Shown here: positions 23,176 through 46,977 of the stretch, one piece after another
How positions within the stretch are numbered: position 1 is the stretch's first letter
Layout of the letters: each line of letters begins with the position of its first letter
Source of the DNA: an uncultured Bacilli bacterium
GTDB lineage: Bacteria; Bacillota_I; Bacilli_A; RF39; UBA660
Direction: 5' to 3'
Assembly: GCA_934098445.1 (NCBI GenBank)
Contig: CAKOOW010000002.1
Span: 1 to 47,470 of the forward strand
DNA length: 47,470 nucleotides
Translations under genes and position numbers: made by a program
The notes under the pieces: model-generated
Databases searched by the model: none
What the model was told of the DNA's origin: nothing
What the model saw: only the letters and a program-made list of their open reading frames with translations

Positions 23176-24711
23176 ATGAAAAAGCCGATAACAGGACGGT
23201 TGGCTGCTGCTATAATACTTAGTTTTTGTATTATCATAACTAGTAATAAGTCTTTTTATGGAAAAGCTTTGGCAAGTGATGGAGGAAAAATCGAAGATTT
23301 AACTGATTATCCGGAAGAAATATCTTCTATAAAGATATTTAAAGATAAAGATAATCTTTTAAGTAACGAGGAACTACAGAGACTAAGAAATCTTTCTTAT
23401 AAGCCTTGTACCTATGAATTTAAGGGAAGCATAGAAGATTTATATAATATTATTATTTTAAATAGTAATAATTATCTTAAAGATACGGATTATTCTAGTA
23501 TTTTAGAGATTAAAGAAGATTATATAAGAGAGTATGTTATTAAGACTATTAAAGATATAATTAAAAGAAATTTAAAAGAAGAGAGAAAAGATAATATTCA
23601 TAAGTTAATATCTCTTAAGATTGTTATTGGTTCTTTAGAAGAGGATACTTTAGGACAATATGATTTTAAAGAAAATTTGATTATCTTAGATATGGAGAAA
23701 ATTCTTGGGAAAAGTAGTTCTATAGATGATATTAATATGAATCTATTTGATTGTTTAAATCATGAGTTTAATCATGCTTTTCAAGGATCTTGTAGTGGTA
23801 AGTTAATTAATAATACTTCTTTTATTTTAGAGAGTAGTGCAGAATCTTATAATTATAATATTTTAAAGAATGATTATAAATTTGTTAATAGTAGATATGA
23901 ATATGGATATGCTTATTTAGAAGAAAGAAAATATGAGAGTAAGTTATTTTTACTTAGTCTTTTAGATAATAAGAGGTCTATAGAAGAGTATTATGATGCT
24001 ATTGATAAAGGAGATATAAAGAGGTTATTTGCTTTTCTAGATTTAAATAGTATTGAAGAACAGAATGAATTTTTAGAGGGGATATGGTTGGCAGATGGGA
24101 TCCTTTTAAGGAATAATTATTGGAGTAGAATCGTAAAGTCTGATGATTTTGATAGTCTTAAGGATTATAATATTGATGAGTTATTGATGAGAGAAGCAGC
24201 TGGGGCTTATGAGAGTTTTATCTTGAAGATGGCGGTTAAAGGCTTGATGAAATATAATATTTTGAATAATGATTTAAGTTTAGAAGATAATTTATTGTTA
24301 TATCATTTTATTTTAATAAATGTTTTAGATAGGGTAAGTTTTAATGATTATAATTATGCTACTTGTGAAGTTAGTTATACTTTTTATCAGGATTTTTTTG
24401 ATCATTATTTACAAATAGAAGAGATATTCTTTAGATTTTTAGGGTCTTATTATAATTATTCGGAAGAAGAGATAAGATCTATAGATGATAGTTTAGATAA
24501 AGATAAGATAGTAAATGGGATTAATAATTATTTAAATACGGGGTATTGTCTTAATGAAGATAAATATATTAAAGAATTAATTGATAAATATCCAAAGATA
24601 AGAATAATTAGACAGAGTGGGGTTATTTTAGCTAATTTTAACTATAATAATTTAAGAAATATAAGAGATAGGAAATATTCTAAAGATGGGATTAAGCTTA
24701 TTTTGAAGTAG
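23176..24711 (+). CDS. secreted HExxH (gluzincin-like) protein, paralogue 1
   Basis: Signal peptide ending ALA-S, HEFNH motif, and a downstream acidic segment ILESSAESYNY that could supply the third ligand. Confidence 0.55.
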   Translation: MKKPITGRLAAAIILSFCIIITSNKSFYGKALASDGGKIEDLTDYPEEISSIKIFKDKDNLLSNEELQRLRNLSYKPCTYEFKGSIEDLYNIIILNSNNYLKDTDYSSILEIKEDYIREYVIKTIKDIIKRNLKEERKDNIHKLISLKIVIGSLEEDTLGQYDFKENLIILDMEKILGKSSSIDDINMNLFDCLNHEFNHAFQGSCSGKLINNTSFILESSAESYNYNILKNDYKFVNSRYEYGYAYLEERKYESKLFLLSLLDNKRSIEEYYDAIDKGDIKRLFAFLDLNSIEEQNEFLEGIWLADGILLRNNYWSRIVKSDDFDSLKDYNIDELLMREAAGAYESFILKMAVKGLMKYNILNNDLSLEDNLLLYHFILINVLDRVSFNDYNYATCEVSYTFYQDFFDHYLQIEEIFFRFLGSYYNYSEEEIRSIDDSLDKDKIVNGINNYLNTGYCLNEDKYIKELIDKYPKIRIIRQSGVILANFNYNNLRNIRDRKYSKDGIKLILK

Positions 24712-24767
24712 TATTTACTTTTGAAATATTTTATGTATAATAGAGGCTAATTGATGGGGGTATTTTA

Positions 24768-26429
24768 GTGAAAAATACAAACAGAAGAATAGTAGCTTCT
24801 TTATTAATTTTTAGTATCCTTATAACCGGATGTTCTAAAGATAAGAATAATAAGATAGATATGCTTAGTTATGTAGAGAGTCCTAAAGACAGGGAAAATA
24901 GTATTAGAATGGTGGTTGGAAAAGATTTTAATACTATAGACATGATGGGAATAGAAGATGTATTTGGAATAGATGAAGAGATAGAAAAGTCTTTAAATAC
25001 TAAGAGTGAGGATTGTACTTATAATTATTATGGAAATATAAATAGTTTGTTTTATAAGATTATTAATAATAGTAATGAATATGCTAAAGATAATGATATT
25101 TATGATTCTGTTTTTGATGAAGAGTTTTATAATAATATTGATTATACTAATTGTTTTGGGGTTTTCTTTGATAAAGATAAATTAGATAAGATAAGAGAAA
25201 GTATTCTAATAGCTTTAGAAAGTTATATAAGTTATATTTATGGGACGGGGAATAAAGAGGACATTCATAATATTTTAGATTTAAAGATAGTGGTATTTAA
25301 AGATAAAGAGTTGGAGAAACCTAATACTTATGGAGATTATGATAGTACGGATAATCTTATTAGAATTAGTTTTTATAATATCTTAGAGTCAGGTTGGGAA
25401 CTTGATGATATAATGGCTCGGATGGATGAGGTTATGAAACATGAACTTAATCATTCTATGGAACATAGTTGTCAAGATAAGATGGAAAATGGGGCTTTAG
25501 AGGAGATTGATTTTCTTAATGAGAGGTATTATAGTTTTTTGACGGAAGCCGCGGCAGAATCATCTTTGTATAATCTAGGGATTGCTAGTGGTTATGAAGC
25601 TAAGGGAGTAGTTTTTTATTATACTTATGATGAGTATAGGGCTTTAGAAAATAAGTTATTATTATGTTCGGTTTTTCAAAAGAATAGGAAGTTAGAGGAT
25701 TATTATCGGTATATTAATAATGAGGATATAAATGGTCTTTTAGAGTTTTTAGGCGCTAATTCTTTAGAAGAGAAGAAAGAGTTATTTAGAGTAGTATATG
25801 CGATGGATGCTTTAGTCGGAAGAAATATGTATCCATATGATGTTTTAGGAGATAAAGATAAATATTCAAAGGAAGATATTATAAGACTTCATGATAAGAT
25901 TGGTTATCAACATTATATAAGTATTCTAAAATATAGTCTTAATTCTTTAATAGATTATAATCTTAAAGAAGAGTTATTATCATTAGAGGATAATTTACTT
26001 TTATATTATATAGTAGTTAATAGTATTTTAGATGATTGTTTCTTTATAGATGATAGTAGTGGGTATAATATTTATTATTGTTATGAAGATTTTGTTGATA
26101 ATTATTATCAAATAGAAGATAGTTTCTTTAGGATATTAGAAGTTATGTATCATAAAGATTATGAGGATATAAAGAGTCTTTATAATGAGTATAAAGATAT
26201 AGATATTATGAAGAGTATGACTTATCTAAGTAATGGTAATGTTAATATAGATAGTAATACTAGTCTTCATGAGAAATTAGAAAAGTTATTGGAGAAGTTT
26301 CCTGGTCTTGGGGTTGTCTCTAATACTTACTATTATAATGGTTATATTAGTAATTGTAATTATGTTAAGTTATTAGATAAAGTTATTGATTCCGAGAATA
26401 AAGATAATACTTTAAGACTAAGAAAGTAA
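24768..26429 (+). CDS. lipoprotein HExxH (gluzincin-like) protein, paralogue 2
   Basis: GTG start, lipobox LITGC, HELNH motif, LTEAAAESSLYN. It is collinear with 23176..24711 (shared LSLEDNLLLY(H/Y)). Confidence 0.55.
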   Translation: MKNTNRRIVASLLIFSILITGCSKDKNNKIDMLSYVESPKDRENSIRMVVGKDFNTIDMMGIEDVFGIDEEIEKSLNTKSEDCTYNYYGNINSLFYKIINNSNEYAKDNDIYDSVFDEEFYNNIDYTNCFGVFFDKDKLDKIRESILIALESYISYIYGTGNKEDIHNILDLKIVVFKDKELEKPNTYGDYDSTDNLIRISFYNILESGWELDDIMARMDEVMKHELNHSMEHSCQDKMENGALEEIDFLNERYYSFLTEAAAESSLYNLGIASGYEAKGVVFYYTYDEYRALENKLLLCSVFQKNRKLEDYYRYINNEDINGLLEFLGANSLEEKKELFRVVYAMDALVGRNMYPYDVLGDKDKYSKEDIIRLHDKIGYQHYISILKYSLNSLIDYNLKEELLSLEDNLLLYYIVVNSILDDCFFIDDSSGYNIYYCYEDFVDNYYQIEDSFFRILEVMYHKDYEDIKSLYNEYKDIDIMKSMTYLSNGNVNIDSNTSLHEKLEKLLEKFPGLGVVSNTYYYNGYISNCNYVKLLDKVIDSENKDNTLRLRK

Positions 26430-26800: not shown

Positions 26801-26810
26801 TATGTAACAT

Positions 26811-26893
26811 CTTATAAAGAGTGATGGAGGGACTAGCCCAGAGAAGTCACACCAACCTATTAGATTAGGTGGTAATGCTAGAGCGATAAGATA
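26811..26893 (+). promoter_or_regulatory. SAM-I (S-box) riboswitch aptamer
   Basis: P1 tcttat...ataaga, conserved AAGAG, GGAGGGAC, AGCCC, GAAG, CCAACC and GGTGGTAATGC blocks. It lies directly upstream of metK. Confidence 0.8.
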
Positions 26894-26965: not shown

Positions 26966-27991
26966 ATGGAAAAATACTATAGTAATGAAATTGTTTTTAG
27001 GGGGCATCCTGATAAGGTTTGCGACCAAATAAGTGATGCTATTCTAGATGAATGTTTAAAGCAAGATGAGAATAGTCGTTGTGGAATAGAGACAGTTGGC
27101 GGAAAGGGTAAAATCTTTATAACGGGGGAAATTACAACGAAGGCTAAATTAGATATAGAATCTATAGTAAAAGGGGTTCTTAAAGATATTGGGTATGATT
27201 ATGATTGTGAAATCATTAATAATATAGGTATTCAAAGTCCAGATATAGCGTTGGGGACAAATGATGTAGTTGGTGGGGCTGGTGATAACGGGATGATGTT
27301 TGGTTATGCTACTCGGGATACGAAAGAATATTTACCAACGGCAATGGTTATTCTTCAGAAATTAAGTCGTAAGTATGATTGGCTAGTACATACTGATAAA
27401 CGTTTCTTGGCGGATGGGAAAGCCCAGATTACGGGGGTTTATGAGAATAATAAGCTTATTAGAATTAAGGATTTTACGATATGCTATCAAAATACTGAAG
27501 AAGAAAGAGATAAGACTGATGAAATTCTAAAGAAGATATGTAATGAAATATGTAGGGAATACAAAATAAAGGTTGATAAGTATTTAATAAATCCGACAGG
27601 AAGATTTTATATTGGGGGATTTCTAGGTGATGCAGGATTAACGGGAAGAAAAATAGTGGTTGATAGCTATCAGTCTTTTGCTAACGTTGGTGGGGGTGCT
27701 TTTTCGGGAAAAGACCCTACGAAAGTAGATAGAAGTGGAGCTTATAAAGCAAGAGAAATTGCTAAACAAATATTAAAAGATAATCCTAAGTATTATTGGT
27801 GTAGTGTTCAACTTTCGTATGCTATTGGGATTGATAAGCCGTTAGCAATTTATATTACGACCGACTTAGGAGATATCAAAGTACCAGAAAGTTTGTATGA
27901 AGAGTGTACGCCAAAAAGAATTATAGAAGATTTAAATTTAAAGAAGGAGTGTTTCTTTAAAAGAGCAAGATACGGTCATTTTACTGATTAG
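26966..27991 (+). CDS. metK: S-adenosylmethionine synthetase (compact 341-aa form)
   Basis: GHPDKVCDQISDAILD, GAGDNGMMFGYA, NPTGRF, GDAGLTGRKIVVD, GGGAFSGKDPTKVDRSGAY and a C-terminal YGHF. Confidence 0.9.
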   Translation: MEKYYSNEIVFRGHPDKVCDQISDAILDECLKQDENSRCGIETVGGKGKIFITGEITTKAKLDIESIVKGVLKDIGYDYDCEIINNIGIQSPDIALGTNDVVGGAGDNGMMFGYATRDTKEYLPTAMVILQKLSRKYDWLVHTDKRFLADGKAQITGVYENNKLIRIKDFTICYQNTEEERDKTDEILKKICNEICREYKIKVDKYLINPTGRFYIGGFLGDAGLTGRKIVVDSYQSFANVGGGAFSGKDPTKVDRSGAYKAREIAKQILKDNPKYYWCSVQLSYAIGIDKPLAIYITTDLGDIKVPESLYEECTPKRIIEDLNLKKECFFKRARYGHFTD

Positions 27992-29777: not shown

Positions 29778-29922
29778 AATTAAGGCTTTTTCTTTGCCTA
29801 AAAGAATCTTTAGTTTACTATGGGTATTTATTAAATATTTAATAAAAAAATTTTTAAAAAGGTCATTTTAGGGCTGGACAAATGATTGAAATGGTGTTAA
29901 CATCTAGCTACTGGTTGGAGTG

Positions 29923-31395
29923 ATGGTTTTGGGAGAGTTAGTATTTATTGATGAGGGTTTATCTAAAGATGAGGTTAATAGAAGAAAGGATATTGTTAAG
30001 AGATATTTTAATCTAATAATGGAAAGTTATGTTCGGGTTACTGGGGATAATGTCATTAGACTTGCTAATCTGGAAGAATATATAGCTATGATACTAAGAG
30101 TTGTTTTTAGAATAGAAGGATTTAAAGAGAAGTTTAATTCTAAAGACTTTTGGGTTTCTTTATATATAAGTATCTTAATGAGAGAGAATAAAGAAGCTGG
30201 GAGAAACGGATTATTTAATGAAGGCGCGATGTCTTTAGATCATTGTTATTTTTATATTTCTTTAGGGTTTTATGATTATGATGCTTTAAAGATAAGTGAG
30301 TTTTTAGTAAGTGATGATAGAAAGACTAAGGATATTTTAAAGAATTGGTTAAAAGAACAGGTTAGATTTCATTGTTGTAATTATTTATTAGGAGTAGTTT
30401 TAATCTTGATGAAGAGGATAGATGGGTATTTCTATGAAAATTTTAATGATATATTTAGAGTAATGAATCAGACTAGTTCTAGTTTATTAGTAGATAAACA
30501 ATATAAAAATATTTCTAATGATAAGATGGAATTACCTAAGATTACTAAGGAAGAGATAGATTCTTTAATTGAAGGTTTCTTTAAGAATATTAAGGCTCCT
30601 GAATGGTGGAATCAAGAGTATATAGAGTTAAAAGAAAAGGGAAAAATTAGTTTTATCGAAGGAGAAACTTCTCTTATTAATAATAGTATTTATCATGCAG
30701 ATACGGGTATTATAGAAATCGATTTACGGGGAAATATTATGGATTTTCCTACTTTGGTTCATGAACTTACTCATTATTTTGTTGGTAAGACCAAAAGAGA
30801 TAATTTTATTTTAGATGAATTGCCTTCAATATATATGGAAGAATTAGCGCTTTCTTATTTAGAGAGCATTGGTTATGATAGAAATGTCATTGCGTTTATG
30901 CAAAATCATCGGGTTTTATCTAATTTTTCTGTTTACGAATCTCTTTTTAATAATTTGGCTCTTGTTAATAAATATAAGAAGAAGGGAATTGTTATTAAGG
31001 AAGATTTAATGCAACCGTTTATAGAGGCTAATAAAGAGCTTAAGGAATGGCGAGAAAAAATGGTTAATTTGGCTTTAAAACAGGGTAGAGATATTCCAGA
31101 GACTTTAAGTGATGATTATTCAATAAATCCAGAAGAGGCTGCTATAGATATGGTTGATCGGGAGATAGATAATATCATAGGTAATGGGAATATGATCTTT
31201 GATGGGTGTCAGTATCTTTTAGGGACTATGATAACTAAAGAGTTAATGAATAGACCTAAAGAGGAAGTGTTACCAGAGATGTTTAATTTGATTAATAAGA
31301 TAGATGAGTATGATTTAGAAAGAGTAGTAAATTCCTTGGGAATAGATATTTTAAAGAAGGATAAGAAAGAAGAGAGAGTCTTAAAGAAAGGGTAA
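29923..31395 (+). CDS. cytosolic HExxH (gluzincin-like) protein, operon gene 1
   Basis: No signal peptide. HELTH motif followed by LDELPSIYMEELALSYLESIGY. Paralogous to 31401..32756. Confidence 0.55.
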   Translation: MVLGELVFIDEGLSKDEVNRRKDIVKRYFNLIMESYVRVTGDNVIRLANLEEYIAMILRVVFRIEGFKEKFNSKDFWVSLYISILMRENKEAGRNGLFNEGAMSLDHCYFYISLGFYDYDALKISEFLVSDDRKTKDILKNWLKEQVRFHCCNYLLGVVLILMKRIDGYFYENFNDIFRVMNQTSSSLLVDKQYKNISNDKMELPKITKEEIDSLIEGFFKNIKAPEWWNQEYIELKEKGKISFIEGETSLINNSIYHADTGIIEIDLRGNIMDFPTLVHELTHYFVGKTKRDNFILDELPSIYMEELALSYLESIGYDRNVIAFMQNHRVLSNFSVYESLFNNLALVNKYKKKGIVIKEDLMQPFIEANKELKEWREKMVNLALKQGRDIPETLSDDYSINPEEAAIDMVDREIDNIIGNGNMIFDGCQYLLGTMITKELMNRPKEEVLPEMFNLINKIDEYDLERVVNSLGIDILKKDKKEERVLKKG

Positions 31396-31400
31396 GATTT

Positions 31401-32756
31401 ATGGATGAGATTGAAGTTTTTACAAGAGGATTAAGTTCGGAAGAAATAAATAATCGGGTTAAAGTGTTTGATTTATGTGGTGGTTTAATTAATAAATATG
31501 TTCAGATGACTAGTGATTACTTAGTTGATATGGTTAATTTAGAGGATTATTTAACTAAAGTAATTAATACTATTCTTAAAGATGAGAAGTTTATGAAGGG
31601 AATAGATAGTCAAGAGTTTTTAGCGGGTAACTATCTTTTAATAGAGACTTCTAAAGATAATGAAAGAATTAATGATGCTTATATTCTTAGTGCTTTTTCT
31701 TATTATAAGAGTGATGCTAAAAGAATAGTAGAGTTTTTAATTAACTATGATGAAGTAAGAAAATTAGCGATTAAAAATTGGCTAAAAGATGAAAGTTATC
31801 TAAAGATATATAATTATTTACTTAGTAATTTAACTTTAAAGTTAGAATCTTATGATAAGAATGCTTTAAGTTATTTAGATAGTCTTTTAGAGTTAATGAG
31901 TTTAAAGAAAAATAGTTATGTTTTTGATGAGGGGTTTTCTGAAAGAAAGTTATCTTTAGAAGAGTCAGATAATTTAGTAGAAGGTTTCTTTTCTTATTTA
32001 GGAGCTCCTAAAGAATTGATGAATAATTATCTTTATTTAAAGAGAAATAATTCAATTCAAGACAAAAAGTCATTTAGAGAAGGTAATGGTAATTGTTATT
32101 TAGATAAGGATGGTCTTTGGAAGATAGAGTTAGAAAGAACGGGAACTACTAAAGATTTTATTGTTTTTATTCATGAATTTACTCATTTTATTAGTGTAAG
32201 TGGGAATAGGGATTCTTTCTTCTTGAGTGAGTTACCTTCTATGTATATGGAAAGTTTAGCAGCCTCTTACTTGGAAAGTCTTGGATATGGAGATAATCTA
32301 AGAGAAGAAATTTTAAGAGAAAGAAACAATTATTGTTTAAAAAAATACTTAATAAATAGATCTTTATACCAAGATTTAGTAACTTTTAGAAAAGTTGGTT
32401 ACCTGAGAGAAGAAAGTTTTGAAGATAAGGTTTCAGGAAAGGTGAAATTTGTAAGAAATAGAGGAGCTTTTAATAATAATGATGTGTCTTTAGAAAGAAC
32501 AAAGAAAGTTCTTTGGAAAGAAAATATTTCAAAGATTTTAGATACGGGGGTTAATTCAGTTCATGGAATAGCCTATTTACTAGGACTTATAATAACTGAA
32601 GAATTGGTAAGAAGACCTAAGGAGGAAGTATTACCGGAGATGTTTAATTTAATTAATAAGATTGATGAGTATGATTTAGAAAGAGTAGTAAATTCTTTGG
32701 GAATAGATATTTTAAAGAAGGATAAAGAAGAAGAAAGTGTCTTAAAGAAAAAGTGA
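31401..32756 (+). CDS. cytosolic HExxH (gluzincin-like) protein, operon gene 2
   Basis: HEFTH motif followed by LSELPSMYMESLAASYLESLGY. The last ~47 codons are almost identical to those of gene 1. Confidence 0.55.
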   Translation: MDEIEVFTRGLSSEEINNRVKVFDLCGGLINKYVQMTSDYLVDMVNLEDYLTKVINTILKDEKFMKGIDSQEFLAGNYLLIETSKDNERINDAYILSAFSYYKSDAKRIVEFLINYDEVRKLAIKNWLKDESYLKIYNYLLSNLTLKLESYDKNALSYLDSLLELMSLKKNSYVFDEGFSERKLSLEESDNLVEGFFSYLGAPKELMNNYLYLKRNNSIQDKKSFREGNGNCYLDKDGLWKIELERTGTTKDFIVFIHEFTHFISVSGNRDSFFLSELPSMYMESLAASYLESLGYGDNLREEILRERNNYCLKKYLINRSLYQDLVTFRKVGYLREESFEDKVSGKVKFVRNRGAFNNNDVSLERTKKVLWKENISKILDTGVNSVHGIAYLLGLIITEELVRRPKEEVLPEMFNLINKIDEYDLERVVNSLGIDILKKDKEEESVLKKK

Positions 32757-40725: not shown

Positions 40726-42195
40726 ATGGCTTCTGGAATTATGAAAAAGTTTAATAAAGATAAATATTTAAAACAAATGGAATTTAAAAGATTTTATAGA
40801 AAATATGAAAGATACTTTTATATCGGTATTCCTTGTCTTTTAGTAGGTATCTTAGGAATATATTTTGCTTATTCAAAATTTACTACTACGGCTGATGAAG
40901 AAGTAGTAAAAACAACTGTTGGTGATTTTATTTATGGTGATGTAGTTATTAATAATTATGTTAATGGTGAGTATGTAGTTGAGGCTCCAGCCCAAGCCAC
41001 TGGATATAAAGTTGATAAAATTGTTTGTGATAATGGTGCCATTGGCGAATGGAATGCTAGAGATTGGGGACCAATTATTTCTAATGTAACTAAAAGAAGT
41101 AAATGCAATATTTATTTTGTGAATACTGAAAAGATAAATATTGGTAATGTGGCTGTGCCATTAGATGCTTATGGACTTTGTCCAACAGTAAATGCAGACG
41201 GGACAGCAACGGTTACGGAAGGAGAAAGCACATACGGCTATTTATGCAGTATGAAAGATGCTTATGGGACAAGCTATTACTATCGTGGTAATGTAACAAA
41301 TAACTATGTAAAATTTGGAACATGGTCTAATGATACACCGTCAATATTTGCTGATAGATATGGCGAACTGTATGATTCTTTAGATGATTGCAAAAACCAA
41401 GAAGATTCATCTGATTGTACTGAGATAATTCGTGCTGGAAAAGATATGTATTGGCGTATAATTCGTATAAACGGTGATGGTACGGTAAGAGTTATATATG
41501 ATGGTACGAGTGCTAGTTCAAACGGTGAATCTAGTAGTTATAGGCAAATTGGTACTACGGCTTTCAATAGCTCTAATGGTAATGCTTATATTGGTTATAT
41601 GTATGGTAAAGATGATGCATCAACCTATGCTGAGACCCATGCTAATACCAATAATTCAACAATAAAAACTTATCTTGATACATGGTATGAGAATAATATT
41701 AAAGGGACAACAAATGAACAATATATTGCCGATAATATATTTTGTAATGATCGTAGCTTTGCTCCAAATAATACTGGGAAAGGTACTTCCGCCTATTTTA
41801 CATATTATCGCTGGTACAATGATGCTGGCACTACGCAAAACAGTAAAATGATGTTGACATGTCCACAGAAAAATGATGCTTTTACAGTAAATGATACAAT
41901 TAAAGGAAATGGTGCTTTAACTTATGGCATAGGTTTGTTAACGGCTGATGAAGTAGTATTAGCTGGAGGCTTGGGTTCAAGTAATTTAAATTATTACCTC
42001 CATAGTGGGCAAGACTATTGGCTTGCTTCGCCTGGCAGCTTCTACGGCCACACTTATGAGCGTAATGTGAGTTCCGACGGTCACTCGATGGAACGCCGTA
42101 TCGACTACTCGTTTGGGGCTCGTCCAGTTTTTAATCTGACATCTGATATATTAAAAAATGGTGATGGGATATCTAGTAATCCTTATCACGCGTAA
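40726..42195 (+). CDS. membrane-anchored surface protein, DGR-target-like paralogue with C-terminal variable block VR2
   Basis: N-terminal TM anchor (YFYIGIPCLLVGILGIYFAY). Conserved body shared with 42759..44009 (YWRIIR-NGDG-VRVIYDGTSA, FCNDRSFAPNN, MLTCPQKNDAFTV). A WLASP...G-x-RPVFNL C-terminal module contains the GC-rich block. The start could be ATG 40726 or 40741. Confidence 0.85.
   Translation: MASGIMKKFNKDKYLKQMEFKRFYRKYERYFYIGIPCLLVGILGIYFAYSKFTTTADEEVVKTTVGDFIYGDVVINNYVNGEYVVEAPAQATGYKVDKIVCDNGAIGEWNARDWGPIISNVTKRSKCNIYFVNTEKINIGNVAVPLDAYGLCPTVNADGTATVTEGESTYGYLCSMKDAYGTSYYYRGNVTNNYVKFGTWSNDTPSIFADRYGELYDSLDDCKNQEDSSDCTEIIRAGKDMYWRIIRINGDGTVRVIYDGTSASSNGESSSYRQIGTTAFNSSNGNAYIGYMYGKDDASTYAETHANTNNSTIKTYLDTWYENNIKGTTNEQYIADNIFCNDRSFAPNNTGKGTSAYFTYYRWYNDAGTTQNSKMMLTCPQKNDAFTVNDTIKGNGALTYGIGLLTADEVVLAGGLGSSNLNYYLHSGQDYWLASPGSFYGHTYERNVSSDGHSMERRIDYSFGARPVFNLTSDILKNGDGISSNPYHA
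42022..42126 (+). repeat. Variable-region-like block VR2 (collinear with the TR at 42372..42479)
   Basis: The 12-nt 5' boundary cttgcttcgcct and the 3' end cgtcca are identical to the TR. About 56% GC by hand count (42021-42120). Differences from the TR fall mostly on TR adenines. Confidence 0.8.
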
Positions 42196-42226
42196 GTGTA
42201 AATATTGCTTAAACGAAGACGATATT

Positions 42227-42266
42227 GTCGCAGAATAAATCTATTCTGCGACCGCCGATTTTTTTA
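42227..42266 (+). terminator. GC-containing hairpin plus T-run downstream of the VR2 gene (terminator; possibly also a DGR-associated hairpin)
   Basis: Perfect 11-bp stem gtcgcagaata / tattctgcgac with a 4-nt loop, followed by cgccgattttttt. Confidence 0.7.
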
Positions 42267-42371
42267 ATTTAAACACGGTTACTGGTTGTGTTACTTGTAG
42301 CCGTGACAAATTAAAATCTTTATATTGATAATATAAAGTTGGCTTATTCTATATAATACGAGTTAGTCTTA

Positions 42372-42479
42372 CTTGCTTCGCCTAACAACTTCAACGGCAA
42401 CAATGCTAATGGGTGTAATGTGAATTCCAACGGTAACTTGAACAACAACAATGTCAACAACTCGAGTGGGGGCCGTCCA
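42372..42479 (+). repeat. DGR-type template repeat (TR)-like non-coding element, Asn-codon (AAC/AAT)-rich
   Basis: There is no start codon and an in-frame stop lies 5 codons upstream. In the target frame it reads LASPNNFNGNNANGCNVNSNGNLNNNNVNNSSGGRP. 16 of the 33 codons from cct to cca are AAY. It is collinear with VR2 and VR3. Confidence 0.8.
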
Positions 42480-42758
42480 TATTCCTGCTAAGATTGGTAA
42501 ATAACTAATGTCACTCATGATAAAGGGCTATGGCTTTTTATTGCAAGAAGTAACCTTTTAAGACTAGAAATAATATCTATTTGATTTTTTTAAACAAAGT
42601 TAAATATGGTACCAAACTTTTATAAGGTAATCTATATTTTAGATTGGAAACAAGAATAAACCAGTGGTAATTAACCCGAACATATGGCATAGATGCCTTT
42701 AAACATGCTTTAAAGGCTAAATACTATGTCACAAAATTAATATGGGAGATATATTAAG

Positions 42759-44009
42759 ATGAGTAAAAATAAAAAAAGAAAAAAACTATTTATTATTTTA
42801 AGTATAGTGTGTTTACTTACTATAAGTAGTATTAGTTTTATTTATTATAAGCAGGGTACAAAAGTTGAATCTATTATTGGGGCATATATAGATGGTGAAT
42901 ATTCAACAACATTACCATCTAAAGGTAGTGGCTATGCTGTTGAAAAAATTGTTTGTGATAATAATAAAAGTGCCAGTTGGGATAATGTTAAATGGGGGCT
43001 TAAATTATCTAATTGGAGTACAAGAAGTAGATGTAATATTTACTTTAAAAGTCTAGAAAGTTTTACAATAGCAAGTAAAACATTTTACTTAGATGAAATG
43101 CAAAGATGTCCATCTATGAATAGTGATGGAACTGTTACTGTAACGGGAGCTGAAGATACTTATGGATATTTATGTAAAGCAAAAGATGTCTATGGTGATT
43201 CTTATTATTTTAGAGGTAATGTAACAAATAATTATGTTTTATTTGCTGATAAATATTGGCGTATTATTAGATATAATGGTGATGGCTCAGTAAGAGTAAT
43301 TTATGATGGAACATCAGCACATGCTAATGGTGAATCAAGTACCGATAGACAAATAGGAACAAGTGCTTTCAACAGTAGTTATAATGATAATGCTTATGTA
43401 GGGTATATGTATGGTAAAGTTGGAGCTTCAACATATGCTGAAACACATGCTAATATTAATAATTCCACAATAAAAACATATATAGATACTTGGTATGAAA
43501 ATAATATTAAAGGTACCTCTAATGAAAAATATATAGTTGATAATGTTTTCTGTAATGACCGCAGTTTTGCTCCCAATAATAGTGGGACAGGTGCTGGAAA
43601 GAGTAGCACTTATTATCGTTGGTATAACTTTGCAAACACTTCAAATAACAATAAGATGATGTTAACATGTCCGCAAAAAAACGATGCTTTTACTGTAAGT
43701 GATACTTCTAAAGGAAATGGCGCCTTAACATATGGGATTGGTTTGGTAACAACTGATGAAGTAGTTTTAGGTGGTGGATGGAATTCTTATAATTCTAATT
43801 ATTATTTACGTACTGGTGATGAGTATTGGACATCTTCCCCTTATTATTTTAGCGGCAGCCGCGCTTATGGGCGTCATGTTTTTTCGGACGGTTATGCTAA
43901 CGACTACTACAGTGTCTACAATACTTATGGTGTCCGCCCAGTTATCAATCTAAGCTCTGAGATTCTAAATAACGGTGATGGGACAGCTAGTAATCCATTC
44001 CATCCGTGA
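42759..44009 (+). CDS. membrane-anchored surface protein, DGR-target-like paralogue with C-terminal variable block VR3
   Basis: N-terminal Lys-rich segment plus TM anchor. Same conserved body as 40726..42195. C-terminal YWTSSP...GVRPVINL module with a GC-rich block. RBS tgggaga lies upstream. Confidence 0.85.
   Translation: MSKNKKRKKLFIILSIVCLLTISSISFIYYKQGTKVESIIGAYIDGEYSTTLPSKGSGYAVEKIVCDNNKSASWDNVKWGLKLSNWSTRSRCNIYFKSLESFTIASKTFYLDEMQRCPSMNSDGTVTVTGAEDTYGYLCKAKDVYGDSYYFRGNVTNNYVLFADKYWRIIRYNGDGSVRVIYDGTSAHANGESSTDRQIGTSAFNSSYNDNAYVGYMYGKVGASTYAETHANINNSTIKTYIDTWYENNIKGTSNEKYIVDNVFCNDRSFAPNNSGTGAGKSSTYYRWYNFANTSNNNKMMLTCPQKNDAFTVSDTSKGNGALTYGIGLVTTDEVVLGGGWNSYNSNYYLRTGDEYWTSSPYYFSGSRAYGRHVFSDGYANDYYSVYNTYGVRPVINLSSEILNNGDGTASNPFHP
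43839..43940 (+). repeat. Variable-region-like block VR3
   Basis: 34 codons from cct to cca. Collinear with the TR, including the gct-N-ggg block, with one extra codon. Scaffold codons are conserved and the AAY positions are replaced (mostly by Tyr, Ser, Asp). Confidence 0.7.
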
Positions 44010-45930: not shown

Positions 45931-46977
45931 ATGCAAAAAAGTATAGAAAAAATAAGAAAAAGAGTAAGGTGGAAAACTATTCCAGAAGATAAGATAATTG
46001 GCTTGTGTTACGATTTCATGTTTTGCCAAGTATTTGGGGATAAAAATTTGAGCTTTGCTACTAATATATTACTGGCAGATGTTACTAATTTAGATCTTAG
46101 GGATTTAGAAGGAAATATCGAGTATTTAAACCGAGATTTAAAAATCTATCAAAAGAAAGAAATGCTTAATAAAGTAGATATTTTATTAAAGTATAATGGC
46201 GAATATTATAATATTGAGATGAATACGGATATTTCGATGTTACGAAGAAATAAAGTATATAGAGGTCGAATTGAAAGTGATAATCTAAGATTAGGAGATA
46301 CGGATTATAGTAATATAGCCAAATTGGTCCAAATCAACTTTAATAATTTTGATAGTAAAAAAAAGAGACTAGTTTCCATAAGTCAGTTAGTAGATCAAGA
46401 TGGAATTGTAGATGATGATGATCTTGTATACAATATTTCAATGAAATTTACTAATAAAATGTGGTATACTTGTCTTGATGAGAGAGAAAAAAAAGTATTT
46501 CTTTGGTGTCAGTTAATGAATACTGAGGATTTATCAACTTTCAAAGAAAGGGCTGAAAAACTTATGGGAAAAGAAAAAGCAAAAATTTTTGTTGACCGTG
46601 TTTATGAATTGTCGCATGATTCAAAAAACATAGCCTTATATACTAAACTTAGTAATGATGAAATGGTTAAAAACACATGGGTTAAAGAGCTTAATGAAAA
46701 AGAGGAAGATTTGAATAAGAAGTCAGAGGATTTAGACAAAAAGTCAGAAGATTTGGATAAAAAGTCAGAGGATTTAGACAAGAAGTCAGAGGATTTAGAC
46801 AAAAAATCAGAAGATTTGGATAAAAAATCAAATGATTTAGCTAAAGAAAAAGAATCCTTACAACAAGATAAGACAACAATTATTAGGAATCTCTTGAATG
46901 CCGGTTTTAAAGTGGAAGAGATTGCTAAAATGATTAATATGTCTTTAGAAGATATTAAGAAGATAAAGAATAGTTAA
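45931..46977 (+). CDS. Rpn-family / PD-(D/E)XK nuclease-family putative transposase with an internal heptapeptide repeat
   Basis: N-terminal D-F-M-F-x-x-V-F-G box and the VDILLKYNGEYYNIEMN (D...E-x-Q/N) nuclease core typical of the PDDEXK_2/Rpn family. A helix-turn-helix-like tail follows the repeat. Confidence 0.65.
   Translation: MQKSIEKIRKRVRWKTIPEDKIIGLCYDFMFCQVFGDKNLSFATNILLADVTNLDLRDLEGNIEYLNRDLKIYQKKEMLNKVDILLKYNGEYYNIEMNTDISMLRRNKVYRGRIESDNLRLGDTDYSNIAKLVQINFNNFDSKKKRLVSISQLVDQDGIVDDDDLVYNISMKFTNKMWYTCLDEREKKVFLWCQLMNTEDLSTFKERAEKLMGKEKAKIFVDRVYELSHDSKNIALYTKLSNDEMVKNTWVKELNEKEEDLNKKSEDLDKKSEDLDKKSEDLDKKSEDLDKKSEDLDKKSNDLAKEKESLQQDKTTIIRNLLNAGFKVEEIAKMINMSLEDIKKIKNS
46705..46851 (+). 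repeat. in-frame 21-bp tandem repeat, 7 units (EDL(N/D)KKS x6 plus one degenerate unit)
   Basis: Units of gaRgatttRgaYaaRaaRtca start at 46705, 46726, 46747, 46768, 46789 and 46810. The degenerate unit starts at 46831. Confidence 0.9.

Follow-up and report, generated by a model that had tools for sequence, protein, structure and literature searches.

How does the template repeat of a diversity-generating retroelement (DGR) come to lie between two paralogous genes, with no reverse transcriptase (RT) nearby? The question is raised by a stretch of 47,470 nt of DNA (here called the window), a chromosome segment of 28.5% GC whose reverse complement is identical to positions 1-47470 of a contig from a human-gut metagenome (ENA ERZ27287221, k141_1080658, 68.7 kb). 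The paradigm of these elements is the DGR of Bordetella phage BPP-1, with its mtd VR, its template repeat (TR) and its avd and brt genes. What the window locus has in common with it is a non-coding TR that is rich in AAY codons, a VR located 3'-terminally in the target gene, which in BPP-1 encodes a ligand-binding protein, homology that ends in a GC-rich 3' element and a spacer RNA that follows the TR. The locus differs from BPP-1 in being chromosomal, in a gut genome of the Bacillota/Mollicutes-like kind, and in having several tandem paralogues. It also lacks brt and avd nearby, and its TR and VR are unequal in length and mismatched at non-adenine sites.

The answer that we consider probable is that the TR and the spacer (Sp) RNA behind it are a DGR relic, stranded between two paralogous former targets after the RT-Avd pair was lost. 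The locus is an RT-less, apparently decayed DGR; it belongs to a known kind of element and calls for no change to the DGR mechanism. Our literature search found no paper that links DGRs with RF39 (RF39/CAG:956-type bacteria), and on "relic" or "decayed" DGRs it turned up nothing useful. Since we found no paper that makes this link and the target family is unannotated, the locus has some value for the DGR catalogue.

Three paralogous genes of an unnamed family

The window holds three paralogous genes of one family, all on the plus strand. Only the 3' part of gene1 is present (2-499, stop at 499), because the window start cuts the gene; it was recognized from its ORF and repeats, and the complete gene, read in the upstream contig L001, encodes 605 aa. 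A GC-rich VR-like block lies at about 299-424 on the same strand. The second gene, gene2 (40726-42195, 489 aa), was recognized from its ORF and homologues and is the former DGR target next to the TR. Its product carries a membrane anchor at the N-terminus, and its VR, delimited by alignment to the TR, spans 105 nt (42022-42126) and ends 69 nt before the stop of the gene. The GC content of this VR is about 55%, in a genome of 28.5% GC. The third gene, gene3 (42759-44009, 416 aa, called from its ORF), stands at the place that Avd and RT occupy in complete elements and has a VR-like block at about 43833-43940, also on the plus strand.

The family of gene2 comprises more than 6000 proteins, none of them named and nearly all from human-gut metagenomes. 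The match of gene2 to Pfam DUF6273 is weak and below the cut-off, and a PDB profile search with the target protein gave no sequence match. In DGRs the VR is displayed on a ligand-binding fold of the C-type-lectin-like or Ig-like type. AlphaFold was run on the whole target and on its C-terminal part, and the models came out too poor for a fold to be assigned (pLDDT 47 and 57). When the low-confidence model of the C-terminal 185 aa of gene2 was submitted to Foldseek, the top match was 9qa6 (E = 6e-3), the structure of an IgA peptidase from Thomasclavelia ramosa, with 27% identity over 97 columns; C-type lectin domains of CD23 also matched this low-confidence model weakly. A viral origin of the element was considered and rejected, as scans of viral contigs with the target protein or with TR/Sp DNA patterns came back empty. 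What the present work adds is a link between DGR targeting and this very large family of unnamed proteins, which are membrane-anchored and come from human-gut bacteria resembling "Mycoplasma sp. CAG:956".

A template repeat between gene2 and gene3

The TR occupies positions 42372-42479 of the plus strand, between gene2 and gene3. It is non-coding, 108 nt long and contains 34 adenines. In the frame of the target it would read L-A-S-P-N-N-F-N-G-N-N-A-N-G-C-N-V-N-S-N-G-N-L-N-N-N-N-V-N-N-S-S-G-G-R-P, with AAC or AAT at 16 of the 33 codons from P to P, and AAC accounts for 11 of these 16 Asn codons. There is no start codon, and a TAA lies in frame five codons upstream (42354-42356). The segment is collinear with the C-terminal variable block of gene2; it has the 12-mer CTTGCTTCGCCT in common with the gene2 VR (42022-42033), and the homology stops at CGTCCA. 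A preliminary description of this DNA had already reported the coordinates, the non-coding state, the 16 AAY codons in 33, the upstream stop, the 12-mer and the CGTCCA end, and on re-reading all of these were correct. Such a density of AAY codons is rare here: with a threshold of at least 10 per 30 codons, and all frames considered, only one other stretch of the window was retrieved, and this one is coding and scores 10 against 16. A minus-strand ORF of 49 aa (42369-42518) runs over the TR; it was treated as spurious because its ATG is not kept in the related contig L011.

Complete, active elements in relatives

What the segment is becomes apparent from its relatives. A scan of metagenomes with a profile of the family returned 80 loci, and about twenty of these have an AAY-rich segment just downstream of the family gene, with the translated pattern …SPNNFNG.NAN.RNVNSNGN…VNN.NG.RP. 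At a number of loci (L023, L027, L046, L070, L075, L095, L096 and L101-L106) a bAvd-like gene and an RT come after such a segment. The bAvd-like protein matches PF22296 with 43.3 bits against a cut-off of 40 (it stays below the cut-off of NCBIfam DivGenRetAVD), and the RT matches RVT_1 with E = 3e-22 and carries the motifs IGNMSSQ (of the IGNxxSQ form) and YMDD.

The VRs of these complete elements bear the marks of adenine mutagenesis, with mismatches to the TR almost exclusively at adenines. Five strains (L101-L105) have an identical RT and different VRs. The mismatches between VR and TR fall on 23 adenines and no other base in L101, and on 17 adenines and no other base in L102. When these two strains are compared with each other, all 24 differences in the VR lie opposite TR adenines; outside the VR they are nearly identical over about 1.4 kb, which takes in the TR, the Sp and the neighbouring 3' portion of the target gene. 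On these strain comparisons we take the complete DGRs of the relatives to be active.

The window locus is built like these elements in several ways: the target proteins are homologous and carry the VR at the same C-terminal position, a homologous TR lies just downstream of the target gene, and the Sp has the same helices. Because related contigs have homologous TR and Sp segments right beside bAvd and an RT of the DGR type, we regard the segment as a true DGR TR that comes with its RNA module. By origin, 42372-42479 is a genuine DGR template repeat, the name under which it had been described at the outset. The differences are equally clear. In the complete elements bAvd and an RT of the RVT_1 type (IGNxxSQ) adjoin the Sp, whereas the window has a paralogue there; the non-adenine share of the TR/VR mismatches is 0-20% (none of 23 in L101); and the VRs vary between otherwise identical strains, whereas the window is without any signature of activity.

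A conserved structured RNA behind the template

Downstream of the TR, the region 42480-42729 (plus strand) is a conserved, Sp-like non-coding sequence that aligns with the region between the TR and the RT/Avd genes of complete DGRs. RNAalifold predicts five helices in it (42482-85/42646-49, 42493-98/42504-09, 42519-28/42533-42, 42546-50/42555-59 and 42629-34/42640-45). Across the RNAalifold alignment, 96.9% of the cells in these helices are paired and 7 pairs have changed on both sides, a count that none of 500 shuffles reaches. Such both-side changes affect five of the six pairs of the hairpin 42493-98/42504-09 and one pair in each of two further helices. Two RT-less sub-lineages differ by two compensatory pair changes and keep the predicted helices. 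Rfam contains no family for the TR/Sp, its single match in the window being a SAM riboswitch elsewhere, and a scan of a genome collection with a 22-nt Sp pattern matched Mycoplasma sp. CAG:956 and nothing else. A conserved RNA adjacent to the TR could be turned into a covariance model with which DGRs are detected independently of the RT.

The spacer upstream of the TR contains two further signals on the plus strand. A terminator-like hairpin of gene2 lies at 42227-42266 (GTCGCAGAAT / ATTCTGCGAC), with a 10-bp stem at 42227-42252 and a T-run that ends at 42266; it is conserved in L011 and was missed by a consensus scan because the T-run begins 7 nt after the stem. Behind it, the promoter-like site GTGACA-18-GATAAT (42303-42332) matches the consensus at 10 of 12 positions and is identical in L011. 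Given its position, about 40 nt before the TR, it is a candidate for the promoter that drives a TR-Sp RNA.

Has the RNA been under selection since the RT was lost? Between the window and a close relative, L012, the Sp is 82% identical, and the 4-fold sites of the flanking uvrB and DHH phosphatase genes are 84-85% identical. The Sp thus stands at the neutral 4-fold level and gives no sign of purifying selection since the split of the window from L012; that such selection had acted on it once the RT was gone, a possibility that we considered, is unsupported by these figures (82% against 84% at neutral 4-fold sites).

Template and variable repeats have drifted apart

When the TR is aligned with the gene2 VR, 78 positions match, 18 mismatches fall on TR adenines and 9 on other bases, and there is one 3-nt gap; the VR with its 105 nt is one codon shorter than the TR. 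Tabulating the mismatches by TR base, a check proposed in the preliminary description, reveals a significant adenine bias: the VR departs from the TR at 18 of 33 aligned adenines, compared with 9 of the 72 remaining positions (odds ratio 8.4, p = 1e-5). The imprint of mutagenic copying is there, and it is blurred: adenines make up 18 of the 27 mismatches (67%). In a survey of more than 30,000 DGRs, the elements overwhelmingly had at least 75% of their TR/VR mismatches at adenines (PMC8144416). The share of 67%, together with the codon indel, fits a former TR/VR pair and not a current one.

Both partners have changed. Part of the non-adenine mismatches are mutations of the TR, which has GGG TGT in place of the GAG CGT common to its sister TRs and the VR; the others are mutations of the VR. 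The GC-rich 3' ends of TR and VR also differ (GGGGGCCGTCCA and GGGGCTCGTCCA, respectively). Drift of the TR at non-adenine positions is visible between strains, with a G>T change at 42397 in a strain of 98% identity, and the TRs of the window and of L011 are separated by 7 non-adenine differences and one at an adenine.

The other two genes align less well. The gene1 block requires 21 gapped positions and has 23 non-adenine mismatches to the TR; the gene3 block requires 9 gapped positions and has 20. It had been claimed that the scaffold codons are conserved in all three copies and that the AAY positions are those that differ. This holds best for gene2, with 9 non-adenine mismatches, and only loosely for the family as a whole, because the VRs of gene1 and gene3 align with indels (9-21 gapped positions) and many non-adenine mismatches (20-23). 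We also considered that the window VRs had been templated by another type of TR, and rejected this, since none of 19 sampled TRs fits cleanly: compared with the three window VRs, none has fewer than 8 non-adenine mismatches, and the best of the 19 for the gene1 VR still leaves 11 non-adenine mismatches and 12 gaps.

No sign of activity at the window locus

A search for an RT (the DGR-clade motifs [LIV]GxxxSQ and YxDD, tblastn E < 1) found none in the window, in the 10 kb upstream of it (L001) or in about 9.5 kb downstream of the TR (L002). Nor did tblastn find an Avd in the window or these flanks. The interval covered reaches from 52 kb before the TR to 9.5 kb behind it. The description of the TR as an orphan is accurate over this interval, which is the extent of the RT/Avd search; contigs that carry these genes reach 909 kb. 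RT genes 89% identical to that of L027 do occur in metagenomes of the same studies, in different samples; no RT homologue was linked to the genome of the window.

If the locus were in use, its VRs should differ between strains at the codons matched to AAY, and the preliminary description had set this as a test. The VRs are frozen instead. Eleven strain variants of gene2 (97-100% identical) have 13 variable columns, none of them among the 32 VR residues; the gene3 VR is identical in 4 strain variants and the gene1 VR in both full-length ones (n = 2). No variation at AAY-matched codons was thus seen among 11 gene2, 4 gene3 and 2 gene1 variants, a sample of about a dozen protein variants read from assembly consensus, which hides minority VR variants. 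At the nucleotide level, two strains differ at 27 of 3284 positions: none lies in the gene2 or gene3 VR, one is in the TR (at 42397, not an adenine) and one in the Sp, and gene3 is the same over its entire sequence. The suggestion that the TR now serves the paralogue family is not supported, given invariant VRs, one third of the mismatches at non-adenines, a codon indel and a TR that is itself mutated at non-adenines.

One strain difference deserves separate mention. At L011:11354, within a VR and at a position templated by a TR adenine, L011 and the strains L014/L016 (CAG:956 strains) differ by T/C, giving Cys or Arg. Over about 4.8 kb the three strains differ at three positions, and this is the sole one within the family genes or the spacer. 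As a lone transition it resembles an ordinary SNP more than the outcome of homing.

How the template may have been stranded

These observations suggest the following course of events. The ancestral cassette would have had the order target, TR, Sp, then Avd and RT. In this ancestor, as in the relatives, the RT-Avd complex would copy the TR-Sp RNA and misread the template adenines; the cDNA would then replace the homologous 3' block of the upstream surface-protein gene, so that the AAY-templated codons become randomised. In the lineage of the window, Avd and RT were presumably lost, and the paralogue gene3 now sits in their position; whether as loss or as replacement, this step is placed here by our reconstruction of the order of events. 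Retrohoming would have stopped, and the TR and the three VRs would from then on have drifted like ordinary DNA. We infer as well that the window TR no longer serves as template for any RT encoded elsewhere in the genome. A relic is the most likely explanation because there is no RT nearby and the genes that were formerly rewritten look frozen. Three features still speak against it: the perfect AAY pattern, what appears to be a promoter-like site of the locus itself, and predicted Sp helices that have been kept.

The same three features count in favour of a working template. An RT-Avd pair elsewhere in the genome might copy the TR-Sp in trans, as a "satellite" template, and occasionally rewrite the flanking paralogues; the 16 intact AAY codons, the promoter-like site and a structured Sp homologous to that of active elements are all in line with this. 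There is also a precedent. In Thiohalocapsa PB-PSB1 some DGR loci have no intact RT, and one of these has kept a TR of its own; for loci with a TR, use of an RT in trans has been proposed there (bioRxiv 10.1101/2023.09.22.558884). The two cases are alike in having multiple paralogous targets, in rearrangement as the cause and in the choice that they pose between use in trans and an inactive remnant. [quoted passage not shown] Those of the window do not: the locus has accumulated non-adenine mismatches and indels, and its VRs are invariant. Even the best VR has 9 non-adenine mismatches and a codon indel, the GC-rich 3' ends of TR and VR are unlike (GGGGGCCGTCCA against GGGGCTCGTCCA), the non-adenine mutations of the TR have not been copied into the VRs, and these are unchanged among strain variants. 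The same decay is seen in 6 of 6 RT-less loci compared, from different lineages, and we consider a template served in trans unlikely. Similarly improbable is a general version of it, in which, in these small-genome gut bacteria, one distal RT-Avd serves several TR-Sp satellites dispersed between tandem paralogues and the window module is live and rarely used. If this were true, each satellite would have its own promoter, and pairs of paralogues would possess private templates.

The RNA might alternatively have found a new role. After RT loss the TR-Sp transcript could have been co-opted as promoter and 5' leader of gene3, and kept for this reason. The arrangement invites the idea: in every RT-less locus a paralogue starts about 30-70 nt after the Sp, and the RT-less loci lack the T-run found after the last stem in elements of the L027 type, so that read-through is conceivable. 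Before gene3, moreover, a consensus scan shows no strong separate promoter, the best candidate having 9 of 12 matches. Co-option is nonetheless a construction from the sequence arrangement. The Sp is no more similar to that of L012 (82%) than neutral 4-fold sites are (84-85%), and in sister loci the TR part is under deletion. We give this role a low probability, comparable to that of dispersed live satellites. Could the segment, finally, be a fragment of a dead paralogue copy, Asn-rich by chance in an AT-rich genome? It is collinear with the gene tails, it lies between tandem paralogues, and AAT is a common codon at 28.5% GC. Yet 11 of its 16 Asn codons are AAC, the AAY codons fall at the positions that vary, and the Sp RNA downstream is not derived from a gene. 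In relatives, homologous segments adjoin Avd and RT and template variation at adenines only; the preliminary description had named a conserved fragment of a dead gene as the finding that would speak against a TR, and what the relatives have at this place are TRs too. A dead gene copy is very improbable indeed.

Probable stages in the decay of a DGR

The pattern extends beyond the window. The non-adenine share of the mismatches is 33% in six RT-less loci against 9.6% in ten loci linked to RT/Avd (pooled p = 1e-8; Mann-Whitney p = 0.0013). Some have gone further than the window. At the syntenic uvrB locus of the close relative (L012/L013), the 5' half of the TR is lost and about 36 nt of its 3' part are left (GACAACAACGTCAACAACACTAATGGAGTCCGTCCA), with the 250-nt spacer downstream of this remnant intact (L012:11800-11890 and L013). 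In L019 the TR is internally shortened. In L100 (1700-1830, protein P0041), a diversified VR is fused directly to the post-TR spacer (…GGTGCCCGTCCA joined to GATTCCTACTAAGATAGATT…), and nothing is left of the terminator, of the TR or of the last 23 codons that the gene normally has. Because of this fusion the protein ends in RPDSY*. The TR was apparently lost here by recombination between the 3' ends of VR and TR.

The genes around the template have their own history. Between the window and L012 (10001-13571), the flanking housekeeping proteins are 99% identical, with 84% identity at 4-fold sites; at the same locus the two family genes (40726-44009) are 71-76% identical, with 48-55% at 4-fold sites. 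This divergence suggests that paralogues were swapped, or converted, rather than inherited vertically.

Taken as a series, the loci lead from a complete active DGR to an RT-less TR with Sp, then to a half-deleted TR, and then to the loss of the TR through apparent VR x TR recombination. Such a series could help to show how DGRs die and for how long the trace that they leave in base composition, GC-rich VRs in a genome of 28% GC, outlives them. Many DGR surveys begin from the RT gene, and stranded templates therefore likely go unrecorded.

Other features in the window

Elsewhere in the window, a SAM riboswitch (RF00162, 60.9 bits) lies at 26809-26892, upstream of ORF 26966-27991. Two more pairs of tandem paralogous ORFs, at 23176-26429 and 29920-32756, have repeated 3' segments, for example 177 nt with 86% identity at 31213-31389 and 32574-32750; as far as examined, these pairs are unrelated to the DGR family.

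ORF 45931-46977 contains 21-nt tandem repeats of the KKSEDLD type (46685-46852), and Pfam gives no reliable name for it. Its length varies by strain, with 348, 362 and 327 aa in L003, L002 and L008, respectively. A homologue of this ORF (27% identity, E = 4e-28) is found within the complete DGR of L096, where it lies between the Sp and the RT.
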